A stretch of DNA of 51,401 nucleotides from Candidatus Binatia bacterium (GTDB taxonomy: Bacteria; Desulfobacterota; Binatia; UBA9968), in NCBI GenBank assembly GCA_040877705.1, contig JBBDNJ010000332.1:1-51401 (forward strand), in the 5' to 3' direction. The position numbers were made by a program, and so were the translations under genes. Positions within the stretch are counted from its first letter, which is position 1. Each line of letters starts with the position of its first letter. The notes below the pieces were generated by a model, which saw nothing but the letters and a program-made list of their open reading frames with translations, had not been told where the DNA came from and did not search any database. This document shows, one piece after another, positions 16,387-23,787 of the stretch.

Positions 16387-16419
16387 ATAAATCTCCTTTT
16401 CCCGCGAAAGGGGAGTTGT

Positions 16420-16600
16420 TGGGGCAGAACGGATCGGTCTCCTGGCTTGAGCTTCAAACCTACTTGCCGCGCCTTCCCATCCTTGGACACGGTTCAGGAC
16501 AGTGGCTAGTGCGTGCGGCGTTCGTAGCTCTTACAGTTGCGGGGCAGCAGAGGATTTTTCACCTCTTTCCCGTAATCCGACTGCGGTTAATCGATTATTT
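16420..16600 (-). promoter_or_regulatory. cobalamin riboswitch (upstream of btuB)
   Basis: Minus strand reads ...GGGAAAGAGGTGAAAAATCCTCTGCTGCCCCGCAACTGTAAG...GCCACTGTCC...GGGAAGGCG...AAGCCAGGAGACC. B12 box is at 16436-16448 and GCCACTG at about 16499-16505. Boundaries approximate. Confidence 0.85.
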
Positions 16601-16621
16601 TTATTGCCCTCCTTAAGCCGA

Positions 16622-17449: not shown

Positions 17450-17524
17450 CCGCTCTGCTCCCAAGCTACATGAGAATTAGGAATCGACGACACTGGAAAC
17501 CTTTCTCTCTCCTCCGGAGAGGTC

Positions 17525-17730
17525 GGTCTATGGCTCTAAGGAGGTCTCCTGGCTTACGAGTAGGGAGGCTTTCCTCCTGCCTTTCACCGCCTTCCCATCG
17601 GCCTGAGGCTGACAGTGGCTGACTAGTGAAAGATCTTACCCGATCACAGTGGCGGGACCGCGCCGGATTTGCACCGGTCTTCCCTTTGACCTTAGAGCAC
17701 CGAAGAGCACCGAGCTGATGTCGCGGAACG
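17525..17730 (-). promoter_or_regulatory. cobalamin riboswitch (upstream of tonB)
   Basis: Minus strand reads AAGGGAAGACCGGTGCAAATCCGGCGCGGTCCCGCCACTGTGA...GCCACTGTCAG...GGGAAGGCGGTGAAAGG...AAGCCAGGAGACC. B12 box at 17543-17555. Boundaries approximate. Confidence 0.85.
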
Positions 17731-17940: not shown

Positions 17941-18201
17941 ATGAAAAAGCAAAAGGCAAGTATCGAACGAGTCGAGCGACAATCGGCCGCATTTGTTGCC
18001 GAGCAGGTTGCGAAACTGAAAGAGTCTTTCCCGGAAGCTGTTATAGAGGGCAAGGTCGATTACGAGAAGCTGCGCGCGACCTTGGGCGATGAAGTCGACG
18101 ACCGGCCGGAGCGATACTCGTTTAATTGGGCCGGAAAACGCGACGCGATCCGGCTTCTTCAGACCCCTAGCCGAGCGACGTTGGTTCCAGCAGCATCATA
18201 G
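17941..18201 (+). pseudogene. N-terminal fragment of a type III-like DNA methyltransferase (Mod)
   Basis: 86 aa. ...LKESFPEAVIEGKVDYEKLRATLGDEVDDRPERYSFNWAGKRDAIRLLQTPSRATLVP resembles Mod N-termini. It stops before any catalytic DPPY / AdoMet motif. Confidence 0.6.
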
Positions 18202-18249: not shown

Positions 18250-18546
18250 ATGAGCCGCATTGCTATTGATCAAGAAGAGATCGCCGGGTTTTGCCGGAAG
18301 CACCATATCAGCAAGCTCGCCTTCTTTGGCTCGGTCCTTCGAGATGATTTTCGCCCCGACAGCGATGTGGATGTACTCGTTGAGTTTGAACCGGGGCACG
18401 TGCCTGGATTGACATTCTTCGCTATGGAAGCGGAGCTTTCAGAAATCTTGGGCCGCAAGGTGGATCTGAATACCCCAAACTTCCTGAGTCGTTACTTTCG
18501 CGATCAAGTCGTGGCCGAGGCCGAGGTTCAATATGTCTCGCCGTGA
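18250..18546 (+). CDS. mntA: MNT-type nucleotidyltransferase (antitoxin of HepT/MNT systems)
   Basis: [21 protein letters not shown] is the GS-x-D-x-D minimal nucleotidyltransferase motif; 98 aa. Confidence 0.8.
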
Positions 18547-18625
18547 CACGACCGTTCCTCTGCGGCACATGCTGGATCATGCCAAAGAGGCGGTCAGCAT
18601 GGCTCGGGATAAAACTCAGGCTTAG
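18533..18625 (+). pseudogene. truncated HepT (DUF86) toxin remnant
   Basis: ATG at 18533 overlaps the MNT 3' end as in HepT/MNT operons. It encodes only [30 protein letters not shown] then TAG at 18623-18625, against more than 110 aa for intact HepT. The R-x4-HxY region is absent. Confidence 0.55.
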
Positions 18626-18716: not shown

Positions 18717-19499
18717 TCAAAGTACCAGGCAACCAGCCGCAAGCCCGGTGTAAGGATCGCGGAGAAACAGGATGACAGGAAGGTCGGCTCTGTACTTCAA
18801 TGATCGGATTTGGGAATTGAATCCTTTGCCAAGAGAGTTGGTTACCATACCTGCAAGAATCTTAATAACTGGGTCGTAGTAGAGTGAAATATCAATTGCT
18901 ATAGCAGCCTGCCGCGTTTTTCCCAATTGTTTAGCCTTTGATCTAAAAGCTCGGCGTAATCTTAGCGCAGGTTTGTCATCAAGGAGAAATGATTCAAATC
19001 GAGAGTTTAAGAATTCGCCGTCATTACCATGAATGATCGCTTTTACTTCAATTCGGTACTGTGTATCACCTTGCGTTACAACTATATCAAATCGCCGCTT
19101 TCCTAGATTTGGCTCAGATGTGATTCCCTGAGAAGTAAAGTAATCTAGCAAAATAAGTTCGCTCCACAGTCCTTCAAAATCATCCTGTCTTTTCCAAAAG
19201 AACCGCTTATTGACATCATGGTCGAATGTTAAATTTTTGTATTGGTTCCGTAGCATTTGATAGATTTTGTTGACACCTTGACCAAAATTAGCGGGCAAGA
19301 TCTTAGAGGTAACGAAGCCCTGCCAAAACAACCGAGTGAACAGGTAAGACACTTTATCGTCCTTTCGATTCTTAACCGCATCAGCTTGTTCTTTGAGCCA
19401 GTCCCGGCCTAGGAAATCTTGTTGCAACCCCACAGTAGATATCAGATAGTTCTGATAATCATGTATATGCTCAACTATCCTATTTAACTCTTCTGCCAT
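18717..19499 (-). CDS. PD-(D/E)xK nuclease-like protein, second gene of the candidate defence operon
   Basis: 260 aa. E114 (LWSELILL), D138 (RRFDIVV) and E151-V-K153 (YRIEVKA, nt 19041-19049) have the spacing of a restriction-endonuclease-like core. 11-nt gap to the upstream gene with AGGAAG before the ATG. Confidence 0.6.
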   Translation of the reverse strand: MAEELNRIVEHIHDYQNYLISTVGLQQDFLGRDWLKEQADAVKNRKDDKVSYLFTRLFWQGFVTSKILPANFGQGVNKIYQMLRNQYKNLTFDHDVNKRFFWKRQDDFEGLWSELILLDYFTSQGITSEPNLGKRRFDIVVTQGDTQYRIEVKAIIHGNDGEFLNSRFESFLLDDKPALRLRRAFRSKAKQLGKTRQAAIAIDISLYYDPVIKILAGMVTNSLGKGFNSQIRSLKYRADLPVILFLRDPYTGLAAGCLVL

Positions 19500-19510: not shown

Positions 19511-21598
19511 CTAACGTTTAGAATTCACTAGATTTATCAGTGCGTCTAAATCAACGAGTTGAATCGGCTTATCTTGCACGAAGGAGTACGCTTGAGAAGT
19601 GAACGCGCCCGTCGTAATTATGTAGCCAGATTGTGCTCCCGCGCCCATAAGTGAACCGTAAAACTCTCGAATTACAGGTTCTCCGATTGAAGCATTCCAA
19701 CGTTTGCATTGAACAACAACAAGCTGATGATCTTTACGCATCAACAAGTCTATTCCGTGATCCCCACTTATCGGCGTGATCTCAACCGAGTAGCCCATCT
19801 CGCGAAAGGCCCGTGCAACAAACTCTTCGAAGTCTAAGCGGCTCATGGCGCAGAGCTTGTTAGCGAGGTCTAACGACGTTGCTGATGTAGCGAGGTAGCC
19901 AAATGAAACGAGTGCTTCTCTTGTAAGATTAAGGCTTACGCGTTCTGTCTCATTGGTACGAGTATATTCCAGCAACCTCTTCATCAGAACTCTGGCGTTC
20001 CCCGGAGATCCTTCGCAGTACTTGGCCAGCAAGTCGGCAGCCTCGGGTTCAACAGAGATGTTTTCCTGTTTCGCTATTAACTGCAGCATTTGTCCAATCT
20101 CATGCACGCTGTATGGCGCGAAATCATACACAATCATCCAGCGGCGTAGCCGTTTGTTTACTTGTGAGGGCCTGGATGTTGTACCAATTAGGGTGAAATA
20201 TTTCAGTTCTACATTCGGACCGACGTTGCGGACACTTGAACCCTCTCCCATCGTAATGGCAACGGAAGGATTCTCAAGCACTTGGACCAAAGCCTCGACG
20301 ATCGGTTCTTTGAGCAGGTCGATTCGCTCAACAATAGACAAACCGCCCGCTTGCAATGATATCAGCAAGTCTTCGAGATCTTCAGGCCTGTCGAGTGAAG
20401 CTGCATCGCTGGATTGAATGCTTGTTTGCATTTCATTCGCGATGGCGCCCGCTAAGGTGGCTTTTCCGATCTCGCGTGGTCCGCAGAGTAGCAGGTGAGG
20501 CAAGCGCTGCGAGTTTCGTCTAGCCGTGTCGATCCGTGCCCTTAGATCTTTCTTAATTGCTTCTTGGCCCACATAGTCAAGAAGACATCCAAGGACAGGT
20601 TTGGCGTCAGTAAAGTTATAGACGGCCATCAACCTGCGAAGGCTCCTGTCCACGCGTGCGGAATTTCTGGTTGTTCCAATTAAAGTGAACAGTTTAACGG
20701 GAAGTTGTATGCTCCGCGCAGCAGGTCCCTGTCCAATCATGATATCGATCTGAAAATCTGCAAGCGCAGAAAGCAGACCCTGCAAAACCACTTTATTCAT
20801 CAACTCGATCTGCTCAATGAGGATTATGTGTCCCTCGTCAAGATTAGTAAGTAAGGCCGCTAAATCGCCAGACCCCTCTATAACGGCAGCGCTGGTATAC
20901 CGGATGTTAACTCCCATCTCCCTAGAGATCTCGCGTGCCAACGAAGCTGTCCCAGGTTCGAATGAACCGCAAAGCAGCAGATGAGGCAGTGGCTCGTTTT
21001 TACCCTTTGCTGCCGCGATCAGTCTCTGCAGATCCTGTATAGGATGTTTCAGCTCTGCGTATGTTAGCAGCGCTGAAAAAGTGGACAATTCACGAATGAA
21101 GTTCTCAAGTTCTCTTTCAAGGTCCGTAAGGACTTCCGACCCGCTAACCTGATTCTTGTAGGTTCTCACTTCCGCGAGCGCCGCAGAAATTAGGACAAAC
21201 TTTTCTTTGTAATTGCTAGCGAAACCAGCTTTGGACCGTGCCTCCTTCGCTTTTGACTTTAGTGATTCTAAAATCAAGTTATCTTTCTTCTTTTGATCCT
21301 CAAACCCATTCTTCTTCGCGCTGTATTCGAGCAATAGTGCACTGGGCAACGGCTTACCGGTTGGAATCTCATTTTTTTCGTATTTGAGTAGCGCCTCTGC
21401 CACCTTAATGATCGCGTGACATGCTGAAATTTTATTATTGAGACTCGTATTAGCTTCGAGATTCTTCTTCGACTCGTCAACTGTTTGAGTTCGCTCCGCG
21501 ATGTCCTTTGATATCACGGGATCACATTCGCGGCAGAGACCCTGGATCGAAACCCGCAGAAACCATCCAGCGCGTCCGCAAGTTTTACATGTGGCCAT
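19511..21598 (-). CDS. multidomain protein: CxxC-x14-CxxC zinc ribbon, helical region, two degenerate RuvB-like AAA+ modules, C-terminal Mrr-type restriction endonuclease domain
   Basis: 695 aa. C4/C7/C22/C25 zinc ribbon. aa 185-330 and 345-547 each align to the RuvB core (GVNIRYTSAAVIEGSGDLAALLTNL...DFQIDIMIGQGPAARSIQLPVKLFTLIGTTR versus RuvB [25 protein letters not shown]...[32 protein letters not shown]). aa 586-690 are Mrr_cat-like (FEEFVARAFREMGY...GDHGIDLL...VVVQCKR). Confidence 0.8.
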   Translation of the reverse strand: MATCKTCGRAGWFLRVSIQGLCRECDPVISKDIAERTQTVDESKKNLEANTSLNNKISACHAIIKVAEALLKYEKNEIPTGKPLPSALLLEYSAKKNGFEDQKKKDNLILESLKSKAKEARSKAGFASNYKEKFVLISAALAEVRTYKNQVSGSEVLTDLERELENFIRELSTFSALLTYAELKHPIQDLQRLIAAAKGKNEPLPHLLLCGSFEPGTASLAREISREMGVNIRYTSAAVIEGSGDLAALLTNLDEGHIILIEQIELMNKVVLQGLLSALADFQIDIMIGQGPAARSIQLPVKLFTLIGTTRNSARVDRSLRRLMAVYNFTDAKPVLGCLLDYVGQEAIKKDLRARIDTARRNSQRLPHLLLCGPREIGKATLAGAIANEMQTSIQSSDAASLDRPEDLEDLLISLQAGGLSIVERIDLLKEPIVEALVQVLENPSVAITMGEGSSVRNVGPNVELKYFTLIGTTSRPSQVNKRLRRWMIVYDFAPYSVHEIGQMLQLIAKQENISVEPEAADLLAKYCEGSPGNARVLMKRLLEYTRTNETERVSLNLTREALVSFGYLATSATSLDLANKLCAMSRLDFEEFVARAFREMGYSVEITPISGDHGIDLLMRKDHQLVVVQCKRWNASIGEPVIREFYGSLMGAGAQSGYIITTGAFTSQAYSFVQDKPIQLVDLDALINLVNSKR

Positions 21599-21657
21599 AT
21601 TTTAAAAAAAATTTCGGCAAAGACTGCAGAAATGACGCCGACCCTGCACTAAAAGCG

Positions 21658-21699
21658 TTATGATTCTGCCTTATTATGATTCTCTTGAAATAACGTCAA
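21658..21699 (-). promoter_or_regulatory. candidate promoter/operator region of the defence-like operon
   Basis: Minus strand TTGACG (21694-21699), then CATAAT/TAATAA 15-17 nt downstream. A 10-bp direct repeat TTATGATTCT lies at 21658-21667 and 21674-21683 (plus-strand reading), 60-85 nt upstream of the ATG. Confidence 0.3.
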
Positions 21700-21760
21700 G
21701 AGAAATTGAAAACGAACTAGGATCGGATTGTCTCCACGTTTGGCCATCGCTCTCCGGAAT

Positions 21761-21788
21761 TTTCAACGCCCTGACAATAATTCGTTGA
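21761..21788 (+). repeat. copy A of a 20-nt motif TTTCAACGCCCTGACAATAA with hairpin (TCAACG/CGTTGA)
   Basis: Motif at 21761-21780; stem arms at 21763-21768 and 21783-21788. Confidence 0.6.
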
Positions 21789-22337
21789 GACATAACACCC
21801 AACGTGTAACCCTGACCGTCAGGCCGCGTAGAGAACCCATCCGATCTCCCCGGTCCGTAACCTTTGAGACTATCCGACGCTACCGGAATAAATCCGCAAA
21901 GACGTCCGTATGCCCCGGCGAAGAACGAAACCGACGGTGGTGTCAAAGATCCCGGAGCGCTTTACGCAGGGGACGAGAGGGACTTGCAAATTGTGCAGTC
22001 TGGAGAAGCTGATATGATTTTTTATTCTTCTAATACTGGAATGGCTCCGCTCTCCGATTTGAATATAAGCTTGAACCGAGCGGATTTGGAAAAGGGAACT
22101 GCAAAACGAGCTTGATGAAAAGTTTGCCGACGCGCTTTTAAGTCAGACCGAGAATATTTCAGAGCAAGAATCGCAAGCAACGATGGAACGTGCTTGGTGA
22201 GTGCCTCGATCTTACAAGCCCCGAGAGATCCGATGACCGATAATTTCGATTAGGACAAAGATCTCATGTTCGTTGGAGACAGAAGAACTCTCCACCGTAA
22301 CGCGGTGAGATTAGCGCGTGAATAACTTCCATCTCGT

Positions 22338-22720: not shown

Positions 22721-22741
22721 TCGGAATTATCAGTTTAACAA
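22721..22741 (+). repeat. left terminal inverted repeat
   Basis: TCGGAATTATCAGTTTAACAA; perfect 21/21 match to the reverse complement of 23656-23676. Confidence 0.85.
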
Positions 22742-22768: not shown

Positions 22769-23587
22769 ATGGAACAATATCGTAAAGCTTTCATCTATCG
22801 GTTTTGGCAGGAAACAAAACCTTGGTTTACGCCGAAGTCGAAATTGTGGGTTACGATCTCCTTGGCTGTTATTGGCTTTGGCCTCCGTTGGTTTTCGGCT
22901 GGGAGGAGCGAGGCCATAAGTTGGTTTTGGTTTGTCATTGCACCCGTCCTCGTCCTTTTAGTCATGGTATGTTTAATCAATCTTTTTCGCACTTCATCTC
23001 TTTTGCATAAAAAGGCGGAGGACGATCATTCAAAAGAGATCGCTCAAGCAAAAGAAGAGATCTACCGTCTACAAAACGCGGTTGATGAGTTGCAAGCCCT
23101 TATTGCCCCAAAACTCGACATTTTATTCGAAGATCAGCCCAAATACGTCATTGTCGATATGAATCCATTGAATGGGATTTCTCACAGAACTTTTAGAATA
23201 GGCGTAAAAAACCGCAGCATGATTAGCATAGACGCCACGCTTCAATTAACGGAAATATCACCCGATCATGAAAGATTTCACAGTTTGGAGATGGAAGATA
23301 TGACATTCAGTCATCTAAGGCTCCCAAAAGAGTTTTGCAGCTTTAATCTTGCGCCTCAAGACGAAAGGCTAATAGAGATCGTATCAAAACGGGACGGGCA
23401 AGATTACTCAACCAAGATCCGATTACATCTTCCAGCGCCAGACGTTATGGCTCAGGGTTCCTATGTATTTAAGCTCTGCGCGACTGGGTCTAACACGCCA
23501 CCATGCGTGAAACACTTTCAAGTTTCTATAGATAATGGGCACCTTAAATTTGAACTGATCAGATCAAGGCCATCCGTAGTGCGTTGA
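22769..23587 (+). CDS. membrane-anchored protein of unknown function (two N-terminal TM helices, coiled coil, beta-rich C-terminal domain)
   Basis: 272 aa. TM segments LWVTISLAVIGFGLRWF and FWFVIAPVLVLLVMVCLINLF, then EIAQAKEEIYRLQNAVDELQALI. No DDE, HUH or recombinase motifs seen. Confidence 0.7.
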   Translation: MEQYRKAFIYRFWQETKPWFTPKSKLWVTISLAVIGFGLRWFSAGRSEAISWFWFVIAPVLVLLVMVCLINLFRTSSLLHKKAEDDHSKEIAQAKEEIYRLQNAVDELQALIAPKLDILFEDQPKYVIVDMNPLNGISHRTFRIGVKNRSMISIDATLQLTEISPDHERFHSLEMEDMTFSHLRLPKEFCSFNLAPQDERLIEIVSKRDGQDYSTKIRLHLPAPDVMAQGSYVFKLCATGSNTPPCVKHFQVSIDNGHLKFELIRSRPSVVR

Positions 23588-23608
23588 GCGCTGCTTTCCC
23601 GGGGAAAC

Positions 23609-23638
23609 TTTCAACACCCTGACAATTAGGGTGGTTGA
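23609..23638 (+). repeat. copy B of the 20-nt motif (TTTCAACACCCTGACAATTA) with hairpin
   Basis: Motif at 23609-23628. TCAACACCCT / AGGGT-G-GTTGA forms a 10-bp stem with a one-base bulge (23611-23638). Confidence 0.6.
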
Positions 23639-23655
23639 TTGGGATTTTATCATCC

Positions 23656-23676
23656 TTGTTAAACTGATAATTCCGA
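23656..23676 (-). repeat. right terminal inverted repeat
   Basis: TTGTTAAACTGATAATTCCGA; reverse complement identical to 22721-22741. Confidence 0.85.
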
Positions 23677-23754
23677 TTTTGTTTCTTCCAATTCCCAAAA
23701 CCTTTCGAGGCTAAGTCTTTACTTTTTAGCTAAATTCGTTTTTTAACCAAAAAT

Positions 23755-23787
23755 TTTCAACGCGACGACAATAAACAGTGTGTCGCG
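23755..23787 (+). repeat. copy C of the 20-nt motif (TTTCAACGCGACGACAATAA) with hairpin (CGCGAC/GTCGCG)
   Basis: Motif at 23755-23774; stem arms at 23761-23766 and 23782-23787. About 75 nt upstream of the ATG at 23850. Confidence 0.6.

Follow-up and report, generated by a model that had tools for sequence, protein, structure and literature searches.

A predicted single-gene nuclease with two degenerate RuvB-like modules and an Mrr-type catalytic domain in a Candidatus Binatia bacterium

The stretch of DNA analysed here, referred to as the window, has a length of 51,401 nucleotides and spans positions 1 to 51,401 of contig JBBDNJ010000332.1 from the Candidatus Binatia bacterium assembly GCA_040877705.1. 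The window harbours, on the reverse strand between positions 19511 and 21598, a gene predicted to encode a 695-aa protein, here called the RuvB-Mrr protein, as a single open reading frame (ORF). According to the ORF call and the Pfam domains, this protein consists, in order, of a zinc ribbon, a helical linker, a first RuvB-like module that lacks a lid (module 1), a second RuvB-like module followed by its lid (module 2), and an Mrr-type nuclease. The residues related to ATP hydrolysis are eroded in both modules and in the family of related fusion proteins, and the catalytic residues of the nuclease are intact. These observations are compatible with a nuclease whose RuvB-derived part may bind nucleotide and act as a scaffold or switch instead of a motor.

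The start codon at position 21598 is backed by the same CxxC..CxxC N-terminus in 12 of the 93 family representatives described below, and also by identical DNA in L004, a locus carrying an orthologue. The zinc ribbon (aa 4-26, CKTCGR...CRECD; 21521..21589, reverse strand) was recognised by reading the sequence; it has no Pfam match, and its predicted local distance difference test score (pLDDT) in the AlphaFold2 (AF2) model is below 50. The same CxxC..CxxC motif lies at the N-terminus of the family members P0004, P0009, P0010, P0066 and P0067. The helical linker or bundle that follows (aa 40-183; 21050..21481, reverse strand) is seen in the AF2 model as long helices covering residues 40-76, 86-126, 130-150 and 155-199 with pLDDT values of about 68-89, and has a ratio of non-synonymous to synonymous substitution rates (dN/dS) of 0.24 against the L004 orthologue.

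Module 1 (aa 184-335; 20594..21049, reverse strand) is a lid-less RuvB-like alpha/beta core, defined by the first Pfam RuvB_N stretch and by alignments with RuvB. The core of module 2 (aa 339-492; 20123..20584, reverse strand) is modelled with pLDDT values above 90, and the NCBIfam RuvB models align with aa 339-565. Its AAA+ lid (aa 496-565; 19904..20113, reverse strand) was identified through Pfam AAA_lid_4 (E=2.9e-5, 24.2 bits, just under the 27-bit cut-off), an alignment with the lid of Thermotoga maritima RuvB, and the model helices 498-566. The nuclease domain of the PD-(D/E)xK type (aa 584-690; 19529..19849, reverse strand) corresponds to Pfam Mrr_cat (E=4.9e-33, 114.1 bits against a gathering cut-off of 21), and its catalytic residues D..D..QxK, namely D613, D617, Q630 and K632, are all intact. 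Pfam detected neither the RuvB_C head domain (PF05491) nor an Mrr-type winged-helix DNA-binding domain in the protein, the N-terminal 580 aa being made up of the zinc ribbon, the helices and the RuvB-like modules. Matches to PADLOC-DB v2 were confined to the Mrr part, including PDC-S02 and mREase_IV (aa 577-692) and the ZorD C-terminus, within aa 550-694. A preliminary description of this region, made from the sequence alone, had covered a span that included neither the Mrr_cat nuclease nor the zinc ribbon.

That description had proposed two RuvB-like modules, and the likeness to RuvB goes far beyond chance. Pfam RuvB_N matched aa 184-322 and, apart from this stretch, aa ~339-490 (E=1.1e-63), and phmmer against RuvB chains of the PDB gave E values of about 1e-34. 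A Foldseek search with the AF2 model returned RuvB for all of the top 47 matches (E ~1e-19), with clamp loaders after them. True RuvB shares 45-50% identity over the core with module 1 and about 35% with module 2. Both modules have predicted hairpin strands and belong to the presensor-1 insert group of AAA+ proteins with a RuvB-like fold. Nonetheless, the scores against the NCBIfam RuvB equivalogs NF000868 and TIGR00635 (263.1 and 255.4 bits) are below the respective cut-offs of 282 and 299.05 bits, despite both modules contributing to them. The protein also lacks the Walker A consensus GxxxxGK[S/T], the Walker B consensus hhhhDE, the sensor-2 Arg and the RuvB_C head. Placement in another AAA+ clade with intact motifs at shifted positions, one of the findings that would have spoken against the preliminary description, was ruled out, since Pfam, NCBIfam, phmmer against the PDB and Foldseek all rank RuvB first and the motifs correspond column for column. 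Because RuvB is the closest relative by both sequence and fold, the motifs are degenerate rather than shifted.

Residue-level states were taken from phmmer alignments to solved RuvB structures and from an alignment of the family and 14 true RuvBs made with MAFFT; RuvB structures in the PDB include 1IN4, 6BLB, 7PBL and 8EFV. Cryo-electron microscopy of RuvB showed that Lys65 touches the gamma-phosphate and Thr66 coordinates Mg2+, that Arg21 is a cis contact and Arg218 the sensor-2 residue, and that Arg171 and Glu128/Asp129 act in trans (PMC9477746). In the P-loop of module 1, CGSFEPGTA (aa 210-218; nt 20945-20971), the Walker A Lys is replaced by T217 and the Mg-binding Thr by A218. The Walker B segment of this module, ILIEQI (aa 259-264), possesses E262 in place of the Asp and Q263 in place of the catalytic Glu. 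Module 1 also lacks the YVGQ motif and the lid, two losses absent from the preliminary description. Its presensor-1 beta-hairpin, DFQIDIMIGQGPAARSI, is nearly identical to that of RuvB.

Module 2 retains K379 in its P-loop CGPREIGKA (aa 372-380; nt 20459-20485), with the Mg-binding Thr replaced by A380, and it also retains the YVGQ motif. Its Walker B segment SIVERI (aa 421-426), reported before as a substitution for FIDEI, is indeed substituted, the precise changes being Asp to E424 and Glu to R425. The lid of module 2, including the segment SPGNARVLMKRLLEY (aa 531-545), is present as had been described, except that the sensor-2 Arg of RuvB (GTPR) is G533 (GSPG), with an Arg, R536, three residues further on. 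The module 2 hairpin, ENPSVAITMGEGSSVRNVGPN, is diverged from RuvB. The statement that the sensor-1 region is kept in both modules is correct for the strand FTLIGTT (aa 304-310 and aa 468-474) and incorrect for the sensor-1 residue, which is Ser475 in module 2 and, in a gapless alignment, Arg311 in module 1, where the orthologue has Gly. R322 of module 1 (SLRRLM) and R486 of module 2 (RLRRWM) align with the RuvB Arg finger (LRxRF) only if a deletion of one residue is assumed. The N-terminal cis Arg of RuvB (LRP) is absent from the RuvB-Mrr family. The motifs quoted in the preliminary description (CGSFEPGTA, ILIEQI, CGPREIGKA, SIVERI, the lid segment, and FTLIGTT twice) are all present where it had located them.

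Compared with RuvB, the RuvB-Mrr protein possesses the same large alpha/beta domain including the presensor-1 beta-hairpin, and module 2 shares the small lid domain. The differences are the missing Thr of Walker A, Asp-Glu of Walker B, Arg of sensor 2 and cis Arg of the N-terminus, the additional loss of the P-loop Lys, the GQ motif and the lid in module 1, the presence of two cores per chain, and an Mrr nuclease in place of the RuvB_C head.

Homologues were collected with a word-based search, followed by a profile search of 1.84 billion cluster representatives, of which the best 150 matches were listed. The word-based search revealed one 86%-identical two-module protein, P0002, and about nine single-module proteins of 385-451 aa with a RuvB-like core, a lid and Mrr_cat, which are ~50% identical to module 2 plus Mrr of the 695-aa protein. 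The family set (n=93) comprises the proteins with core, lid and Mrr_cat from the best 150 profile matches plus the earlier family matches. Pfam detected Mrr_cat in 93 of the 93 members and RuvB_N in 92, and RuvB_C was not among the Pfam families matched. In the databases, family proteins carry only the names 'restriction endonuclease' or 'RuvB'.

The preliminary description had suggested checking whether homologues share the same substitutions, and a census made with hmmalign revealed that the erosion is family-wide: GK[S/T] and DE occur together in 0/93 representatives. The P-loop Lys is kept in 80/93 and lost in some members, for example P0067 (GN). The following, Mg-binding position is Ser or Thr in 19/93, with R in 27 and A in 17. 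The first Walker B acid is E in 34 and D in 15 of the 93, and the second position is occupied by N (25), D (21), E (18) or Q (8). Sensor 1 is S in 39 and T in 10, the Arg finger is R in 34, and sensor 2 is R in seven and G in 47 members. True RuvBs that the search had also returned served as a positive control: aligned in the same way, they have GPPGLGKTT, FIDEIHRL and GTPRIANR.

Columns of the AAA+ and lid regions were ranked by information content. Percentiles of 95 or higher were obtained for the P-loop glycines, the P-loop Lys and the GQ motif, and percentiles of 88-93 for the hairpin GxGxxAR. Percentiles between 31 and 57, like those of an average column, were obtained for the Mg-binding Thr, the two Walker B acids, sensors 1 and 2, the Arg finger and the trans signature E/D. 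The nuclease residues D, D, Q and K are conserved in 91-92 of the 93 members (~4.2 of 4.32 bits). Selection has thus kept the pocket that holds the phosphates and the base, together with the nuclease, and not hydrolysis or communication between subunits. The Mrr nuclease is the most conserved part and is probably the effector.

Full-length members were also searched in one-genome-per-species GTDB contigs, IMG/VR and metagenome contigs, these scans being limited to the peptide patterns used. Four were found in the GTDB contigs, belonging to a delta-proteobacterial metagenome-assembled genome (MAG), Binatia, Tepidisphaeraceae and Acidobacteriota, and about 30 further members were found on metagenome contigs. 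The peptide-pattern scan of IMG/VR yielded no full-length member, and a phage origin is therefore unsupported.

Some relatives depart from the common architecture. P0009 and P0010, of a lineage located amid MmgE/PrpD and CoA-transferase genes (e.g. L005 1344-2663), have altered nuclease residues (QCK to QCQ, and in P0010 also GIDL to GTGL), which suggests that they are nuclease-dead derivatives. In P0015 a degenerate RuvB-like core is fused to an HNH nuclease (PF01844, from precomputed Pfam annotation) instead of Mrr, and P0113 shows the same motif variants as P0015. In P0105 (1230 aa), a long C-terminal region comes after two complete RuvB-like modules, and there is no Mrr. The degenerate RuvB-like core seems, judging from these architectures, to be a swappable module.

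Two modules combined with Mrr were found only in the 695-aa protein and in P0002. Two RuvB-like cores without Mrr occur in a few unrelated matches, P0105 and P0116, the latter of which looks like an exact-repeat assembly artefact. The two modules of the RuvB-Mrr protein are 37% identical to each other, and each is nearer to single-module family members than to its partner, module 1 being 47-53% and module 2 44-51% identical to family members. The best non-orthologous match of module 1 is P0067, a single-module member with a zinc ribbon (53% identity; bootstrap support 0.24). In bootstrapped neighbour-joining trees the two modules were sisters in 0/200 and 0/300 replicates. The nuclease-fused clade stood apart from RuvB in 200/200 replicates of the first tree, and in the larger tree the RuvB clade had a support of 0.91. 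The internal tandem duplication proposed in the preliminary description is not supported in that form, a recent duplication being ruled out by the 37% identity and by the 0/200 and 0/300 sister bootstraps. The sequences point either to two diverged family cores that became fused or to a duplication that was old and asymmetric. The modules also divide the retained features between them: module 1 keeps the RuvB-like hairpin, and module 2 keeps the P-loop GK, the GQ motif and the lid.

The loss of the P-loop Lys in module 1 is recent according to the sequence of the orthologue, which still has GSFEPGKA, the codon change being AAA to ACA. Values of dN/dS derive from a single pairwise comparison with the 86%-identical L004 orthologue and are 0.45 for module 1, 0.19 for both the module 2 core and Mrr and, as given above, 0.24 for the linker. 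Selection on module 1 is relaxed, not neutral. The L004 orthologue (L004 1522-1690) has the same zinc-ribbon start codon and a frameshift about 55 codons in, after the zinc ribbon, so that its gene call starts later; this frameshift may be an assembly error, or the N-terminus may truly have been lost.

The full-length AF2 model (pLDDT 76, predicted template modelling score (pTM) 0.48) is confident for module 2, the lid and Mrr. Module 1, covered by a single sequence, is for this reason poorly modelled there. A separate model of module 1, based on a deep alignment, yielded an AAA+ core with the hairpin at pLDDT 89.5 and pTM 0.82.

The RuvB-Mrr gene is located in a low-GC stretch at ~17.9-24.5 kb (45-49% against 53-60% GC), unlike ruvB in a ruvAB operon. 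This island is flanked by cobalamin and TonB genes on one side and by cobS, gyrB and gyrA on the other. Rfam detected two cobalamin riboswitches on the reverse strand, at 16415-16617 (87 bits) and 17522-17710 (85 bits), just upstream of TonB-dependent receptor and TonB genes. Both lie outside the island and are the only Rfam matches; no structured RNA or tRNA was detected at the island borders.

A 260-aa gene on the reverse strand (18717..19499) begins 11 nt past the stop codon of the RuvB-Mrr gene and is 77% identical to the gene at the same position in L004; the two genes are probably co-transcribed, judging from their arrangement. Pfam gave only weak PD-(D/E)xK-like matches for it (SfsA, E=0.027; NOV_C, E=0.063), and no match of weight was found in PDB, Pfam, NCBIfam, PADLOC or PHROG. 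One further homologue was found, with 35% identity, and the contexts are unrelated. The gene is absent beside all single-module loci examined. A conserved partner gene was ruled out, since the 86%-identical orthologue is the only other family member with the 260-aa gene beside it and no neighbour recurs in ~17 loci.

The neighbours of the family loci form no recurrent defence system. An exception to their variety is a lineage-specific synteny between MmgE/PrpD and CoA-ligase/CoA-transferase genes. Other single-module loci carry an integrase, resolvases and toxin-antitoxin genes of the ParE, BrnA and HicA types, as well as HEPN_AbiU2, AbiTii, PD-T7-4, a type II restriction-modification pair, and Dcm with Vsr. 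At L014 3089-4656, in an Acidobacteriota MAG, a single-module homologue adjoins genes for a C-5 cytosine methyltransferase and a Vsr endonuclease, and a HicA-like gene. These gene neighbourhoods give modest grounds for a role in defence or another genetic conflict.

Upstream of the RuvB-Mrr gene, a non-coding stretch of ~230 nt (21599..21826, reverse strand) is conserved in the DNA alignment with L004 and is a possible promoter or leader. The 23-nt direct repeat AATTTTCAACGCCCTGACAATAA occurs in three copies in the island, at 21758-21780, 23606-23628 and 23752-23774; the first falls in this conserved upstream region, and the other two are 87% identical. A perfect 21-nt inverted repeat, TCGGAATTATCAGTTTAACAA, at 22721-22741 and 23656-23676 flanks a 272-aa ORF on the forward strand (22769-23587), for which no weighty match was obtained in Pfam, PADLOC or PHROG and the NCBIfam matches were far under the cut-offs. 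The ORF with its inverted repeats may represent a small mobile or invertible cassette. The island also encodes an MNT-type nucleotidyltransferase (NTP_transf_2, E=4e-13; 18250-18546, forward strand), which is kept in L004. Directly downstream of it there is no intact partner ORF, only a 30-aa ORF (18533-18625, forward strand). For an 86-aa ORF at 17941-18201, a presumed identity as a methylase fragment had no support in Pfam.

We favour, with moderate confidence, the reading of the RuvB-Mrr protein as a single-gene nuclease in which the part derived from RuvB serves as a scaffold or switch that binds nucleotide and does not hydrolyse it. The suggestion of the preliminary description, a pseudo-ATPase or a non-hydrolysing nucleotide-binding scaffold rather than a motor, is consistent with every computational test that was run. 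The effector would be the Mrr-type PD-(D/E)xK domain, and the front end would be RuvB-derived and no longer a RuvB motor. Module 2 would hold nucleotide through the P-loop GxxxxGK and YVGQ, and it lacks the residues used for hydrolysis, namely the Mg-binding Thr, the Asp-Glu of Walker B and the Arg of sensor 2. ATP or a related nucleotide bound there may switch the conformation or the oligomerisation of the protein. Module 1, with neither P-loop Lys, GQ nor lid, is predicted to be a nucleotide-blind structural pseudo-module. It could fill the place of the neighbouring protomer, so that three two-module chains would form the ring that otherwise takes six single chains, and it may contribute Arg322 and the beta-hairpin, which it has retained. 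Since the nuclease stands in the chain at the position of the RuvB head domain, assembly on DNA would put the nuclease domains at the DNA.

Several findings weigh against this reading. The Glu at the Walker B Asp site, together with a frequent acid at +3 (D in 34 and E in 24 of the 93), could make a non-canonical catalytic site. The RLRRW Arg-finger motif is well kept in the subgroup to which the 695-aa protein belongs, which would be surprising if sensing of nucleotide from one subunit to another had no importance. The lid has a dN/dS of ~1.0 (83 codons, noisy), and the pTM of 0.48 for the full-length model is too low to show how modules 1 and 2 pack. No model of PADLOC-DB v2 spans the whole protein, one lineage lies amid metabolic genes, some members lack the nuclease residues, and the defence context is weak.

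The most probable rival is an active, non-canonical and McrBC-like NTPase motor that translocates DNA and cuts when stalled, using Glu424 and Asp428, Arg486 as finger, and Arg536 for sensor 2. We consider it unlikely. The P-loop GK present in module 2 and in 80/93 members, the RLRRW motif of the close subgroup, an acidic residue at Walker B +3 in 58/93 and an Arg three residues past the lost sensor-2 position in 19/93 would all suit such an enzyme. However, the putative catalytic positions lie at the 31st-57th percentile and are not conserved family-wide, the Mg-binding Thr/Ser occurs in just 19/93, and the combination of GK[S/T] and DE is found in none of the 93. The P-loop Lys itself is lost in some members, such as P0067. 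The head domain, which in RuvB holds the DNA and forms the DNA staircase (PMC9477746), is also absent.

Another explanation requires no motor: the presensor-1 beta-hairpin may imitate that of RuvB and dock on domain III of the host RuvA, bringing the nuclease to branched intermediates of phage replication or to Holliday junctions. In RuvB, the presensor-1 hairpin and helix alpha3 are precisely what RuvA domain III binds (PMC9477746), GxGxxAR of the hairpin ranks with the more conserved columns of the AAA+ region, and the hairpin of module 1 is almost identical to that of RuvB. Nevertheless, this conservation may be structural only, the module 2 hairpin of the 695-aa protein is diverged, and ruvA is linked in no locus examined, so that we regard this explanation as quite improbable. 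Slightly less credible again is its extension, according to which a silent RuvB shell sits on RuvA and places Mrr where RuvB would load, as an immune or suicide nuclease triggered by junctions, the two-module form being a pre-assembled, half-dead ring.

The gene could also be a decaying relic, a RuvB-nuclease gene that is losing its function and in which the loss of motifs is neutral. The very recent loss of the P-loop Lys in module 1, with a relaxed dN/dS of 0.45, the frameshift of the L004 orthologue after the zinc ribbon and the nuclease residues lost in P0009 and P0010 would agree with decay. However, the 695-aa ORF is unbroken, the module 2 core and Mrr both have a dN/dS of 0.19, at least 93 diverged representatives share a near-invariant nuclease site and P-loop glycines, and module 1 is predicted to fold; this makes decay a poor explanation that we rate just below the preceding one. 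A genuine RuvB paralogue driving branch migration of Holliday junctions is hardly credible: the best matches by sequence and fold are RuvB, but the NCBIfam RuvB scores of 263 and 255 bits do not reach the respective thresholds of 282 and 299, the Walker A, Walker B and sensor-2 motifs are degenerate, the head domain is missing, and the fused clade stands apart from true RuvB in the trees (200/200; 0.91 bootstrap).

Fusions of an NTPase to a nuclease are a recurring design in bacterial conflict systems. In STAND/Avs proteins with Mrr-like restriction endonuclease domains, oligomerisation in the nucleotide-bound state activates the fused nuclease, and McrBC is a nuclease driven by an AAA+ protein. 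Similar to these systems, the RuvB-Mrr protein joins a P-loop NTPase module to a PD-(D/E)xK nuclease, and the logic that we propose for it is activation dependent on assembly. It differs in that the NTPase is of the RuvB lineage, that the hydrolysis residues are eroded family-wide and that there is no recognisable sensor domain. Unlike the hydrolysis-competent AAA+ part of McrBC, the catalytic motifs are degenerate in the protein and in the family. With the Mrr-family Type IV restriction endonucleases the protein shares the C-terminal catalytic D..D..QxK and the organisation as a single-gene system, whereas their usual N-terminal winged-helix DNA reader is replaced by the RuvB-like modules.

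Degenerate AAA+ scaffolds are also represented by the delta and delta' subunits of clamp loaders and by the inactive AAA modules of dynein. As in those proteins, the AAA+ fold is kept as a structural or regulatory element after catalytic loss, with active-like and dead modules mixed, but they belong to other AAA+ lineages and have other functions, and the output of the RuvB-Mrr protein is a nuclease. Of the systems compared, the RuvB-Mrr protein would work most like NTPase-nuclease effectors that are switched by assembly. Full-text literature searches returned no paper on a RuvB-Mrr fusion, and a fusion between an NTPase of the RuvB lineage and a nuclease appears not to have been described before.

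The family represents a natural experiment in which a ring motor is turning into a non-catalytic nucleotide sensor or scaffold. The two-module form, as in this Candidatus Binatia bacterium, has in addition, within one chain, a lid-less module that is completely dead, so that the division of labour between modules can be tested directly. Should nucleotide or DNA structure control the nuclease, the family would be a new single-gene restriction-like system and a candidate for a compact tool.

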